From IMG/VR virus record IMGVR_UViG_2609459852_000004: a stretch of DNA of 24,873 nt; one strand, 5' to 3'. Positions 1 through 6,000 of the stretch are shown here, one piece after another. Every line of letters begins with the position of its first letter. The first letter of the stretch is position 1. Position numbers: made by a program. The stretch is from a virus (taxonomy: Duplodnaviria; Heunggongvirae; Uroviricota; Caudoviricetes).

Positions 1-3000
1 CCCATCGCTTTGTCACCCGCCTGTGCCTTGTATTCCATCCACAACAGTTGCCGCGTCACACCTGGTTTTCTCATTTCCGTATCGAAGTACAACATGTCAG
101 GCATTACAAGCTCTGATGCAAAGGTGTCTTTGGGCGGAAAAATGAGTTTCTCCAGCGTGTCATGGGATATATCAGCAGGTAATGGCCATGACAGAGAAGA
201 GGCTTTGAAGCGGGCAAGAACCTCAAAAACGGTTGAGGCGCTGATGTGTAACGTCAGTCCGATACAACGGTTAGTCAGCTTCTTGTCGAACTTGAGCTGA
301 AGGATCTTAAAACAGGTTTCCATAGTGCTCCTGGATTTTCTCTTTCTGGACATTGACGTCTCCACTGGTTTAAACACGGCAATGGAGACTGTGGTGAAAA
401 GAGTTAATTCCCGGAGTGACTGGCAGGATGCCAATCAATGATCGGAAGCATGCCAAATCGTGATCGATTGTGATGCCAAACTGTGATCGGAGATGAATGC
501 CAAATCATGATCGATTCGAATGCCAAACTGCGATCGATTCAGATGCCATTTTGCATGCCAGCGATGCCAGTGCAATTTTAAATGCGGTAAGTATGTTGTT
601 AACCACACCTATTTCGAATGCTATTTCACTACATACAAACGATTTATCGTCTATTATCGACTCAATTCCGGTAATCGTGTTCTGTAACCATTCTTTGGTA
701 ATAGTATTCATAACTATTTCACCTTAATCTCAACATTTCGCAGCTTTAGCTCTACTGGCAGGGCTGACTTTCCGGTTAATGCTAATGCGAGATTTTCTGG
801 AGTAATGAGAGCAGTTATTGTTTTCCCCCTCGCCAGACGAATAATCATTCGTATTTCGCGATCGTCACATGCTCCCGGTCGAACAATTGATATTTGTCCG
901 TTCATCTCACTCTCCTTTGATGCCAATGTTTACAGCCTTGCAAGCCTCTTTGAGTACCCAGTCAACAGCGTCTTTCCATGCTCCGGTTTCGACTGGCGGA
1001 TTTTCACGCTTAACCTGTTCATAGAAGCGCACTGCTTTAACCAGTCCTTCCGGTACTACTGGCGATGGCTGTTTAGCTTCTAAATCAGCAATTCTGTCAA
1101 CCACGGCATCGACGGCATCTGAAAAACTGAAACAGTTACTCCACTCCGGCCTATCCCCGGTTGCTGCAAAATACATATCAGATAAAGCAGACTCAGCATT
1201 GTCACGCTCATTGATGAGTTGCTCTTCGCTTTCCTCCAGCTCTGCAATGCGTTTGCTTTGGGCTTCTCGTTCATCCAACAGCGCCTGCGCTACTTCAGGG
1301 TTGAAAGCTGCGATATAACGAGCGTTGTTCTCTGCGTTTTTCTGTTCGTCGAATCCTGGCCAGTCGACAATATCTCCGTGATGATTATCACCTGGTGTGT
1401 GCACGGCGTACGTGCCGTATTTGCCCGGCGAAATAAATGCGACCCATTCGCCTTGTGTTGCCTGTTTTGCTATCTCGCGCAGCGCCTGATAGTTAATTTT
1501 GCTCACTGGCCGCCTCCTTTGCGAATCTGTTCCGCCCATTCTTCAAGGGATTTCTCTGCATATTCACCGGACAGGCCATCAATTGGATGCGACTCATTAG
1601 CTAACTCTTCTTTCGCTGACAGAATCATGCGTGTAACATCGAAAACTTCAGCCAAAGGCTTATTGATAAATCCGTGATTGAAAGCAGCAGCAAGACGGCT
1701 TGCGGTATAGTTAATACCCTCGTTGCGAGCCTCAGCACGTACTTCATCGAATTTACGCACCAGATACTCAGCATTTGTTTCATTCACTTTTAGATCTCGT
1801 GGTACACATTTCCCGCGAAGAAACCCTTCCATTTCGAAAACATTCATGCGCATTTGCGTAACTCCGATAACTCGTTAAAACGTTCCATAAACATCCCGTA
1901 GGCATGGCCTGGTGACAGTGGAATAACTTTGAACATCTCTGTTGCCGGGATGCCTTCCAGTACAGGCCAGAAAGAGCCATCATCAAGCCCGAGATCGCGG
2001 CGTTCGGTTGCCAGCATAATGAGATCGGCATATTTCACTGGCGTGCTCATAACAGGAGGTAACCCGTATTTCTCACGGATTACGGCGTCTATCTTTTCTT
2101 CCATCTGTTTATAGTCAGGAAGAAGGCGTTTCAGTGGAGCGGGGATGTCCTGGCAATACGCTTCTGTTGCATCATGCATTAACGCTTCAAAAGCAAATTC
2201 CTGCGGTACCAGCTGGCTGCAAAGAACCGCATGTTGGGCGACGCTGTAGAAGTGCGAAAGATGACCGGCAAAGCGACAGATATTTGAAAGGGAAACCGCG
2301 ATATCGTTAATATCGATGTCGTCTTTATTTATCCTGTCATAATAAAAATGCTTACCGGAAAAAGTTTTAATAAATGACATTTTGTTCTCCACGTATATGC
2401 GCTGCACCGCGCTGAATTCTGGTAAAAGGAAGCCCTCACTATCCGGCGATTATTGAGTTAATTACGTTTCCATAAATGCCCCCGCAGGGGCATTTGCAGT
2501 AATGAAATCAGGCGGTGAAAGTACCAATAAAGGTTTCTACTTTGCTGTCTTTGAATTTCTCAACAAGCAGATCACGAAATTCGTTAGCCATTTCTTCCTG
2601 CACTGCTTCCAGCTGAATAATGCGCAGAACCAGTACAGGACGATCGCCAGTGATAATGCTGAGGCGTAATTTAAATGGACGTTCTTTCAGACCTTCAAAC
2701 GGAACACATTTAAATTCAAATGCCACTGGCATAATATCTTTGGTCTTCGCTTCGACAGACTCCATCAGGGAGCGTTTGCCGCTGAAGTCATTATCTTCAA
2801 AATCAGCGGTCTGGTTTGCTTCAATCGTGATTTTACGGACAGCCGCAGCCGCTTTTGTTGCCTGAATAGCGTCACCATTAGCATCAAAGCCCACAAGGTA
2901 GTCGGCCCAGTCTTCAATCCATTCTGCCAGTGACTTCTGGGAGTTACGCTCGCCGTTAACAGACAACAGGGCAGAGAACGGTGCTGTCTTTTTCAGTTTG

Positions 3001-6000
3001 AGAGTGGCGGTGTTATCTGCGTGACCTGGTTCATCGATAGTACCCAGGTTAAGCACACTGACTGCTCGCATATTATCGGCATCGATAAAGCAGCGGGTGC
3101 CTTCATCTGCAAGATCTTTAGAATAACGGGTAAAGTCATCTATGCTGGCAGTGGAAAGTGCACCACGGAAACGGAAGCGATTTAAATTAAATTTTTCCAG
3201 ATCATGAATGCGGAAATTCTCAGGCAATGCCACAGCATCGGCACCAATCTTACTGATAATTTCATTAACACCCTGAGCAGAAATAAGGGCATGGATTTGA
3301 TTAATTGCGGTTGCGTCTAAGTTCTGAGACATAATAAGTCCTCACTATATAAAGATATTCAGTGATGAGATAAATAATCAGTTTATTAAGAACGATATTA
3401 ACGACCTGCTGCGCGGAGTTTTCCGTCAGGCTCACCGGCAAGAGTCAGTAATTGTCCTTGGTCTTCCTGCAGAATAGTCAGGCGACCACCGCGATTGACA
3501 TACATCGGCGTTTCGGTGGTGTCTTCTTCGGAAATTTTCCCGCGGTTAGTCGGGCGAACATATGAGAGTTTGTGTTTGATTTTCACACGGTTCTCATCAA
3601 ACGGTTCGATTTCCAGGTTGAGTGAGACCTTACCTTTGGTTTTCGTGTTCATCACACCGGAAGCGACTTCACTGAGAACTGCGCCGATTTTGGTTTCAAA
3701 TACGCCGCCGTCCAGCTCCCCGATAAATGCCTGCACATCAGTACTGCGTTCGCTAGCCATTTTGCTGCTCCTCATCATATCGACCCTGCAAAGTCGGTTG
3801 GTTTCTCCACAAAACAGAGAAGAACACCTGCGGTGGCAGCCGCCCGGGTGGATTGGGTTATGAGCCCGTCGTCCGGTGATGCTCTTCTCTGTTTTGTAAA
3901 AAGAGCGGTACCAGCCGGAAGCAAGTGTACAAACTGGTACCGCCAAAGCAGTGGCTGTTGTGGTGGGGGTGTCACTCAGGCGTATGGTCAACCTGACAAT
4001 CCGGTGTCCTCAACGGGGAAAGAGTAACCCCGCCATACTTACCGCCGCGCCATTTCGCGGATTACCACAACGCTGAGAGCACTTAGCCAGTTACGGCACC
4101 ACACTTTGTCGCGGCTCCATAAATGCCCTCATCGTTGCACCCTGGTCTCTTCCCAGGCGTCAAACCGAATCGCCACGCTGGTTAGGCGTCTTATCAGCAT
4201 CATCATTGACTTGCACATTCCGGCTACCTGGTTTGTTTGCCCGAGCAAGGAGTGGATTGTCCCCTTTAACGTCCCCAGACCGCTAACGACGCATGTGCCA
4301 TACGCCGTGTTACAACCAAATTTTGTTAGTACCTTGTTTGTAGGTCTGGAAAGAAAGATAAAATGAAGTTGCGCATTATGCAAGTGTTTTTATTGCGAGA
4401 TATGCAATTTGATGGGTAATGAAAAGCCACCTTCTGGTGGCTAATTGATGTTGAGGTAGGGGGTTAATTGTGTCGCTTAAGGGTTTGTGACTGACTGATT
4501 AAGACCTTTCCAAAGACCATAAACCGGTGTTCGTTTTCGCTGGTAATTCCCCATTCGCGGTAAATCTGATTATCAGAAATTACCAGCAGTTTATCAGGTA
4601 TCATTTGCAGTCGTTTGACGTAAATTTTATCATCAAAACCAAATACATATATACCATCCCCATCAAACTGATTGATACTGATATCAACGAAGATGAGATC
4701 TCCTGGCTCAATGGTTGGACACATACTGTCCCCACGAACGTTGATAACTTTAATGTGATTTGCTGGTCGTCCACCAAACATCGATACAGCATTATCAGTT
4801 CTGTATTCAATGGCATGAATCACATCAATGACATCACCGCCCTGGATAAGGCCATTTCCCGCACTGGCACTGACATCCAGCATTTCAATACGGAATACAT
4901 CCTTCACCTGCGCAACATCCTCACTAATACTGTTTTTACATACAGTATTACTTTTGAGGTCTGAGGTAAAGAGATCAGCAATATCAACACCTAAGCTCCT
5001 GGCAATATTACTCAGGGCTTGTTCAGTGAATTGTTTCTGCTTACCTGTTTCGAGGCGCGAGATATTCGCCGCATCCACTCCTATTGCTTCAGCGAGATCG
5101 GCGATTTTCATGTTCTTCGCCTGGCGAAGTTGTCTGACTCGATTTCCTATGTTCATGCGTTTATTACATTTCTTTATTGCGCGTTAAGCAAATCAACTTG
5201 CGCAAAATATTTGCGTGAAATAATATGCTCATCACGCAATATGTGGAGGTTATATGCAATCACCATTACGGAATGTGCGTAAGGCGCACGGATTTACTTT
5301 GCAGCATGTTGCTGCGGGCGTTCAGGTCAATCCAGCGACGCTGAGTCGTATTGAAAGACTGGAACAAATTCCATCTATCGATCTTGCAGAACGTCTGGCC
5401 AATTTTTTTAAGGGTGAAATCAGCGAAATGCAGATTCTTTATCCGGCACGTTTTCAATCTAGCCAAAACCAGAATGGGTTTAAACCACAGGAACAGGAGG
5501 TAAGCCGTGGGTAAGCATCACTGGAAAGTGGAAAAACAACCTGAGTGGCACGTGAAAGCTGTCAGAAAAACTATCGCGGCATTGCCTGGGGGTTACGCTG
5601 AAGCTGCTGAGTGGCTGGATGTAACAGAGAACGCTTTATTCAACCGCCTTCGTGCAGATGGCGATCAGATTTTCCCGCTGGGATGGGCAATGATTTTACA
5701 GCGCGCGGCTGGCACTCACTACATTGCGGATGCTGTCGCACAGTCTGCTGGTGGGGTGTTTGTATCGCTTCCTGAAATTGAGGAAGTAGAGAACGCCGAT
5801 ATAAACCAGCGCCTGCTGGAAGTCATCGAACAGATCGGGAGTTACTCAAAGCAGATTCGTTCGGCAATCGAAGATGGGGTAGTGGAGCCACACGAGCAGA
5901 CAGCAATTAATGATGAGTTGTATCTGTCAATTTCGAAGCTCCAGGAGCATGCAGCACTGGTCTACAAAATCTTTTGCGCTCCAGAAAAGAGTGACGCCCG

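Follow-up and report, generated by a model that had tools for sequence, protein, structure and literature searches.

In Escherichia coli K-12, the prophage CPS-53 (KpLE1) carries the genes yfdP-yfdQ-yfdR-yfdS-yfdT, and four of them, yfdQRST, were isolated for their ability to suppress over-initiation of replication when present in multicopy (Noguchi and Katayama 2016, PMC4776307). In pull-downs, purified K-12 YfdR bound DnaA through DnaA domain I, with Phe46 of DnaA being important for the interaction, and YfdR was found to compete moderately with DiaA and DnaB (PMC4776307). Multicopy yfdQ and yfdR, together with either yfdS or yfdT, inhibited initiation at oriC in vivo, and in vitro oriC replication was inhibited in extracts with an excess of YfdQRST; the authors suggested a role in phage growth analogous to that of lambda P, which binds DnaA (PMC4776307). 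As summarized in that paper from Zimmerman (2008), YfdR and the 5'-deoxynucleotidase YfbR are structural homologues, but the affinities of YfdR for nucleotides are much lower, and its nucleotide phosphohydrolase activity is weak and of low affinity. Here, we analyze the counterpart of these genes at positions 1503-3760 of a 24,873-nucleotide (nt) stretch of viral DNA (IMG/VR record IMGVR_UViG_2609459852_000004; hereafter, the window). The DNA of this cluster matches a prophage of E. coli O166:H15 strain JNE070796 at 100% identity.

The genes yfdP, yfdQ and yfdR are already well known from early-left operons. They are annotated, named and partly characterized, and they have been described as common in lambdoid phages (LLS, ST64B, phiNP and ArgO145), where yfdQ and yfdP were given no known function and judged unlikely to be hidden recombination genes (Genome Research 2025, PMC12315714). 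According to a preprint (10.1101/413146), K-12 strains deleted for yfdQ or yfdM regained a demarcation line when supplied with the respective protein, and plaques of another phage, SW1, appeared. The cluster is also extremely common: some part of our 2.7-kb query was present in 4771 of 5426 complete E. coli genomes, and at least 80% of the query in 1840 of them. A scan of viral contigs gave only copies of 99-100% identity, which were uninformative on gene context.

Consistent with the initial annotation of this DNA, the cluster consists of four tightly packed, co-oriented genes, all on the minus strand and filling 1503-3760. Its match to the K-12 genes yfdP to yfdS holds for the first three proteins, which are 97-99% identical to those of CPS-53 (118/120 residues for YfdP, 272/274 for YfdQ and 172/178 for YfdR, so that YfdR is nearly identical to the protein that was tested experimentally). 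The match does not hold for the fourth gene, which retains only residues 1-42 of YfdS and lacks the DUF551 domain, and no YfdT is encoded in the window. Gene order, spacing and a 10-nt overlap between yfdR and the next gene are shared with CPS-53. The upstream regions differ: the prophage has a repressor gene, operators and a leader of ~600 nt, whereas K-12 has a rearranged yfdO-yfdP spacer with boxes for the regulator SrsR.

What is new in this analysis is the linkage of yfdP to yfdQ, a covarying RNA hairpin after yfdQ, and the status of yfdR as a frequent but dispensable neighbor. The region is made of three units: a yfdP-yfdQ module, yfdR, and a mosaic open reading frame (ORF) of 116 amino acids (aa). 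As to function, we favor, at a probability of roughly 0.55, a reading in which YfdR, together with YfdQ, would block DnaA domain I on prophage induction, so that host initiation stalls while the phage uses its own O-like initiator.

The yfdP-yfdQ module and its RNA hairpin

The genes yfdP and yfdQ are always inherited as a pair, and this two-gene module ends in a conserved RNA hairpin. Across 80 loci drawn from one-genome-per-species collections, a YfdP homologue lay directly upstream of yfdQ in 79, with the remaining locus cut by a contig end, and the median gap between the two genes was 60 nt. In the window, yfdP (3398-3760, minus strand, 120 aa), the constant upstream partner, is separated by 65 nt from yfdQ (2508-3332, minus strand, 274 aa). 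The same pairing was found in Marinobacter, Hahella, Photobacterium, Kistimonas and Pontibacterium, where YfdQ is 41-46% identical, and in Xanthomonas phage CP2, where the gene upstream of yfdQ encodes a YfdP homologue (39% identity, E = 7e-22). Of 50,697 phage genomes, 180 contain YfdP and 179 contain YfdQ, and the two sets break down by host in the same way.

YfdQ belongs to the DUF2303 family, as the initial annotation had assigned it, matching PF10065 over residues 7-272 of 274 (E = 2e-92; 309.7 bits against a cut-off of 26.6). At E up to 1e-3, 1819 cluster representatives belong to this family; the top 150 consist almost entirely of single-domain proteins with a length of about 250-300 aa, alongside a few shorter fragments. 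YfdP matches phrog_204 over its whole length (E = 2.5e-50), and all 284 of its homologues carry the precomputed label PF27127. We considered whether the two proteins might be related to each other, and profile comparison found no relationship. The yfdP frame stays open for a further 231 nt on its 5' side (3761-3991, minus strand), up to a TTG at 3991, and some YfdP database entries are longer, at 148-199 aa. Homology to K-12, however, sets in only ~25 nt ahead of the ATG at 3760 and takes in a ribosome-binding site (GAGGAG), which argues that the 120-aa form of YfdP is the real one.

An RNA hairpin, AAAUGCCCC-UGCG-GGGGCAUUU (2474-2495, minus strand), starts 15 nt after the yfdQ stop codon. A GC-rich hairpin was present at the same position in nearly all of the 80 loci, even where the sequence differed. 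RNAalifold gave a 10-bp stem in 37 distinct sequences, with the structure conserved across Enterobacterales; 98.1% of the cells in this alignment form a standard pair, and 6 of the 10 pairs show double compensatory changes. The covariation score was 0.393, compared with 0.119 in shuffled alignments (none of 500 reached the observed value) and at most 0.076 when the partners were slid. U-G pairs are frequent in the stem and would be C-A mismatches on the opposite strand, so the element most likely acts in the mRNA. A textbook terminator has a GC-rich stem and at least five U residues; here only three U follow, themselves within the stem, which is why the terminator scan did not flag the hairpin. 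It is probably a weak terminator, an attenuator or a 3'-end stabilizer that separates yfdPQ from the genes downstream and gives the pair its own expression level. Such a boundary agrees with the yfdPQ operon that is listed for K-12 (PMC9181523).

Structure prediction, which the initial annotation had proposed for each protein of the cluster, was run for YfdQ and YfdP, and neither predicted fold matches a solved structure. The AlphaFold2 model of YfdQ, built from a 30-sequence alignment (predicted local distance difference test score, pLDDT, 75.9), consists of an alpha/beta body preceded by an N-terminal helix. Residues 173-198 form a loop that was modeled with low confidence yet is highly conserved. 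A Foldseek search of this model against the PDB (entries to 2026-04-08) gave no meaningful match (best E = 0.13) and did not return entry 9o7m. In the YfdP model (pLDDT 73.1), a long helix is accompanied by a sheet of three strands and by a tail that is conserved but disordered, a predicted fold for which we found no match to any solved structure; PDB sequence searches with YfdP and with the 116-aa ORF likewise returned no matches. A PDB sequence search with the window's YfdQ did find 9o7m, entitled "YfdQ Protein" (E = 1.2e-44), which consists of 36 chains of a single 274-residue sequence. The aligned part is 98.8% identical to the protein of the CP2-like Xanthomonas phage MET23-P3; the corresponding protein in phage CP2 is ORF37 (positions 3068-3892 of locus L162). 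Our literature search found no publication for 9o7m. The 36 chains suggest either one very large homo-oligomer or a smaller assembly present in several copies.

The surroundings of the pair in other phages bear on what it might do. In phage CP2, it lies near Erf, exonuclease, endonuclease and SSB genes; in Thalassomonas phage BA3, near Erf and RecE; in an Acinetobacter phage, near DUF2800, DUF2815 and DNA polymerase I (PolA); and in other loci, SSB and an Rv2179c-like exonuclease are neighbors. The DUF2303 protein of Burkholderia phage JC1, gp10, is encoded beside RecT and YqaJ and was found in CsCl-purified virions, and its authors proposed that it binds DNA ends like T4 gp2 (PMC9144972). It is conceivable, though in our judgment doubtful, that YfdP-YfdQ is an accessory to DNA replication, recombination or DNA-end handling. 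Phage DNA, for instance at its ends or as replication intermediates, would then be bound by the large oligomer of YfdQ; the role of YfdR would be only to clear nuclease-released deoxynucleoside monophosphates (dNMPs), and the DnaA effect would be incidental. The constant placement of the pair within recombination and replication modules of distant phages fits such a role, as do the JC1 observations, the 36 chains of 9o7m, and a reported sensitization of cells to methyl methanesulfonate (MMS) and H2O2 upon deletion of yfdQ (PMC4776307). Other observations fit it poorly: the genes are found in ArgO145, which has a full Rec module, as well as in phages that lack one, without being universal in the latter (PMC12315714); neither fold nor sequence resembles a known DNA-binding, annealing or nuclease protein; and YfdQ is acidic, with a pI of about 5.0. 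We dropped the narrower idea of a hidden recombination function, which the published argument opposes (PMC12315714), and also that of YfdQ as a DNA mimic, its charge being unremarkable.

We infer that YfdP and YfdQ may act together physically. More speculatively, and with somewhat less confidence than we place in a DNA accessory, the two could constitute an unrecognized phage machine of two proteins, in which YfdQ forms a very large assembly and YfdP is its small obligate partner. The activity would be of a new kind, for instance the sequestration or remodeling of a host replication factor, or the caging of a nucleotide or of nucleic acid. Temperate, and perhaps also virulent, phages across Gammaproteobacteria would encode such a machine in their early regions, as would most E. 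coli genomes, and its fold would be unlike anything solved before 2026.

YfdR and the host initiator DnaA

The third gene, yfdR (1844-2380, minus strand), encodes a 178-aa HD-domain phosphohydrolase that is annotated as a 5'-deoxynucleotidase. It follows yfdQ after 127 nt; RefSeq places its start at the ATG at 2380, and the mechanical ORF extends to a GTG at 2407. Its association with the pair is looser than that between yfdP and yfdQ: yfdR follows yfdQ in 59 of the 80 loci (within 200 nt in 54) and is absent from the other 21, including all eight outside Enterobacterales. YfdR-type HD proteins also occur alone, without YfdP or YfdQ, in many virulent and jumbo phages of many hosts. In four of the loci (L093, L094, L095 and L109), a leucine-rich-repeat protein with a variable number of 20-residue TGITSLPEGLSVGG-type repeats is encoded between yfdQ and yfdR, an insertion seen in several Enterobacterales.

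By family, YfdR is a relative, not an equivalog, of YfbR. It matches phrog_318 (deoxyribonucleoside 5'-monophosphate phosphatase) at E = 1.4e-111, while its score against the Pfam YfbR-like family PF12917 (25.0 bits) lies below the cut-off of 25.9, and its only NCBIfam match, the equivalog NF003009, lies far below threshold (20.5 bits against 122 required). The H...HD...D signature reported by the initial annotation is present (H50, H69-D70 and D119), and the HD-motif stretch aligns with the YfbR motif HDA.E...GD.P.P.K. Residues R36, H50, H69, D70, E73, D78, P82, K84 and D119 are conserved in at least 97% of 56 YfdR homologues, which argues that enzyme activity, and not DnaA binding alone, is under selection. 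The closest solved relative is the uncharacterized Atu1052 (PDB 2gz4; E = 6.7e-14). Both it and E. coli YfbR (PDB 2paq) share with YfdR the HD fold family and the motif H...HD..E...D.P.P.K...D; however, YfbR itself is remote in sequence (phmmer E = 0.9), the nucleotide affinity of YfdR is reportedly much lower, and DnaA binding is an additional property of YfdR.

The initial annotation described the roles of these genes as unknown, a description that has been overtaken, for YfdR and for the whole cluster, by the published DnaA binding and block to oriC (PMC4776307); it also proposed them as candidates for host takeover or counter-defense. The takeover half of that proposal already has support in the literature, obtained with K-12 proteins that are 97-99% identical to those studied here (PMC4776307). 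The counter-defense half found no support in our searches, in that none of five proteins had a match in PADLOC at E up to 0.01; PADLOC-DB is a collection of defense proteins.

In its fuller form, the counter-defense explanation holds that YfdR hydrolyzes an immune nucleotide, either a cyclic or linear second messenger or dAMP as a precursor of dITP in Kongming-type systems, and so protects the phage early after induction. We consider this unlikely. The strict conservation of the HD catalytic residues (with the selection on enzyme activity that it implies), the placement of yfdR in the early-left operon and the spread of YfdR-like HD genes through phages of many hosts are all compatible with it. 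There is also a precedent in phage T5, where Dmp, an analogous 5'-dNMP phosphatase, disables Kongming by depleting dAMP (bioRxiv 10.1101/2024.12.20.629578), showing that a dNMPase can be an anti-defense enzyme. Dmp and YfdR are alike in reaction class (5'-dNMP to deoxynucleoside) and in early expression. They are not homologous, however: we tried Dmp as a YfdR homologue and rejected it, with a BLASTP E above 3 and neither an HD nor any other Pfam domain in Dmp. Moreover, Dmp counters a defense whose trigger is a dNMP kinase encoded by the phage, and Dmps are found mainly in phages with their own dNMP kinase (bioRxiv 10.1101/2024.12.20.629578); we saw no such kinase among the window ORFs scanned. 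T5 both degrades host DNA and carries a dNMP kinase, and neither trait is evident in the prophage. The HD domain of YfdR, finally, is of the YfbR/Atu1052 nucleotidase branch rather than of the HD-GYP or another cyclic-nucleotide phosphodiesterase type; YfdR has no GYP motif, and its Pfam matches are only to YfbR-like and HD_3. None of these results supports the degradation of second messengers that the initial annotation had envisaged for the HD protein. The only reported activity of YfdR is on canonical 5'-deoxynucleotides, a result which the annotation had named as refuting its hypothesis.

We return to the reading in which YfdR acts on DnaA. On this scheme, inactivation of the repressor would lead to leftward transcription of the operon, and YfdR would bind DnaA domain I at the Phe46 patch that DiaA and DnaB use. 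YfdQ would help YfdR to hold back new rounds of host replication at oriC, and the phosphatase activity of YfdR may trim the dNMP pool as well. The phage would meanwhile replicate from its own O-like initiator as host initiation stalls. On this view, the block would occur during induction of an intact prophage and would benefit the phage. A gene for such an initiator is present in the window (7436-8428, plus strand). It matches phrog_391 (E = 1.7e-99) with no Pfam match, and it is the only recognizable replication gene; no P-type helicase loader, DnaC or DnaB family was matched among the early-right ORFs scanned.

The proposed effect has parallels in lambda P and in Bacillus subtilis SirA, each a small protein that blocks initiation by binding the host initiator, with SirA using the equivalent Phe49 patch. 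YfdR differs from both in having no sequence relationship to them and in being an enzyme-type HD protein; lambda P, in addition, binds domain III of DnaA and is also a helicase loader.

Several observations weigh against a DnaA block as the function of these genes in the phage. The effect on DnaA was seen only with multicopy expression, deletion of yfdQRST was without effect on initiation, and the authors cautioned that the effect may be an overexpression artifact (PMC4776307). Suppression required yfdS or yfdT, of which the window has neither, merely the first 42 residues of YfdS, and YfdQ, YfdS and YfdT had no strong affinity for YfdR or DnaA in pull-downs (PMC4776307). The gene yfdP was dispensable for the K-12 phenotype (PMC4776307) yet is the most constant partner of yfdQ, which implies that the conserved function of the pair is probably something else. 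Similarly, the occurrence of YfdR-type HD proteins without YfdPQ in many phages, and the absence of yfdR from 21 of 80 yfdPQ loci, mean that DnaA binding may be a side property. Our estimate for this reading stays only slightly above even because its physiological relevance is hypothetical and because the prophage has neither yfdS nor yfdT.

Control of the operon and the rest of the window

The region occupies the part of the early-left operon nearest the repressor, in a lambdoid E. coli prophage of the SfV/ST64B/LLS type. To the right of the cluster lie a cI-type repressor gene (4464-5156, minus strand; Peptidase_S24, E = 5.9e-19, and HTH_3, E = 1.1e-10), by which the operon is repressor controlled, a divergent cro (5254-5514, plus strand) and, beside these two, a CII/YmfL-type gene. 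Two operator-like palindromes of the form TTGC-N7-GCAA (4369-4383 and 4393-4407) lie downstream of the repressor gene, in the presumed OL/pL region, and a further copy (5177-5191) lies in the interval between the repressor gene and cro; the window contains five matches to this pattern, compared with 0.98 expected. This arrangement is that expected for OL and OR, and together with the same gene order in SfV it indicates that the lambdoid early-left position given in the initial annotation is correct. A scan at the operators found no sigma-70 promoter hexamers that could be assigned with confidence.

A terminator-like hairpin (4425-4442) follows the repressor gene, and between the operators and the yfdP start codon runs a leader of ~600 nt (3761-4368, minus strand) in which RefSeq annotates no gene. 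Most of it (3761-4327) is at least 98% identical in the cdtI, Ayreon, mEp460 and Stx2c phages, which differ in their immunity regions. An Rfam search of window positions 1-6500 found nothing in the leader or the cluster at E up to 1, and we recognized no N-like antiterminator in the leader, although no search was aimed at nut or put elements. SfV annotates two terminators and the 98-aa orf33 at the equivalent position, and an 84-aa ORF in the prophage leader is unrelated to orf33.

The functional phage SfV has the order cI, terminators, orf32 (YfdP), orf31 (YfdQ), orf30 (YfdR), orf29, orf28, xis and int. The same general layout, with cI, a terminator, a leader, yfdP, yfdQ, yfdR, small ORFs and xis/int, is shared by the prophage with SfV (orf32-orf29), ST64B (sb37-sb35), LLS, phiNP, cdtI and mEp460. 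Like the SfV/ST64B/LLS-type phages, the prophage has no recognizable recombination module in the parts viewed; the immunity region and the genes beyond yfdR vary among them, as is typical of lambdoid mosaicism.

Control by a phage repressor also bears on whether the genes serve the lysogen rather than the phage, as stress-tolerance morons. In favor of this are reports that deletion of yfdQ or yfdS raises sensitivity to H2O2 and that deletion of yfdQ raises sensitivity to MMS (PMC4776307), and the binding of the K-12 yfdPQ unit by the stationary-phase regulator SrsR (PMC9181523). In the window, however, the genes sit behind repressor operators in an intact-looking prophage. We searched for the K-12 SrsR boxes upstream of the prophage yfdP and found them absent, the homology to the K-12 upstream region ending just upstream of the yfdP ribosome-binding site. 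The pair is also found in phages CP2 and BA3, with no lysogeny genes in the stretch viewed. A benefit to the lysogen is, in our assessment, the least probable of the explanations, and quite improbable in itself.

The fourth gene of the cluster (1503-1853, minus strand) overlaps yfdR by the 10 nt noted above and the following ead/Ea22-like gene by 4 nt, according to the RefSeq annotation. Its 116-aa product is a mosaic of the YfdS N terminus and an unrelated remainder: 37 of its first 42 residues are identical to K-12-type YfdS, and there is no similarity beyond. We found no Pfam match for it, including to DUF551 (PF04448), which K-12-type YfdS does match. Its PHROG matches are to phrog_583 at positions 1-42 and to phrog_614, phrog_14548 and phrog_368 at residues 36-116, and the remainder is common to Ea22-associated phage proteins. 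Within 907-1853 (minus strand), the ead/Ea22-like protein and the 116-aa ORF match separate parts of the same longer families, phrog_368 and phrog_14548, which points to domain shuffling among Ea22-type early proteins. The 116-aa ORF is not conserved as a neighbor of yfdQ or yfdR. More generally, the region beyond yfdR is highly variable, with 286 distinct downstream ORFs falling into 191 clusters; recurrent families are an Rv2179c-like 3'-5' exonuclease, SSB, dATP/dGTP pyrophosphohydrolase, DUF551, Ea22-like proteins, excisionase and integrase. At its left edge, the window (1-711) starts within an IS21-family element (istA/istB, ISSso4 family), according to the RefSeq annotation of the identical strain; this element interrupts a DUF551 gene, of which a 68-aa ORF (505-711) is the remnant.

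Several features elsewhere in the window lie outside the early-left operon. An Rfam match to isrK, an Hfq-binding small RNA (6415-6491, plus strand; 59.3 bits against a gathering score of 50, E = 3.8e-11), is overlapped by a weak match to the a1/b1 targets of C4 antisense RNA, and both lie inside a 387-aa Ash/Rha-type ORF (6055-7218). Judged by these matches, the early-right operon may contain a Gifsy/P1-like antisense immunity element. In a nin-like region between Dam methylase and RusA genes, a 108-aa protein (9569-9895, plus strand) has the LexA DNA-binding domain only, without the peptidase domain. Finally, a complete OmpC/NmpC-type porin gene (12685-13827, minus strand; Porin_1, E = 1.7e-151) lies antisense just after the Q antiterminator gene, as a moron-type insertion in a stretch of low GC content (about 40-44%).

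Implications for E. coli and its lambdoid phages

The cluster is present in most sequenced E. coli genomes and in many Shiga toxin phages. If the block to DnaA takes place during real induction, it would add to lambda P a second way in which a phage can silence the origin of its host. The strict pairing of yfdP with yfdQ, the conserved hairpin and an existing multi-chain structure make this pair a well-defined target for functional study.

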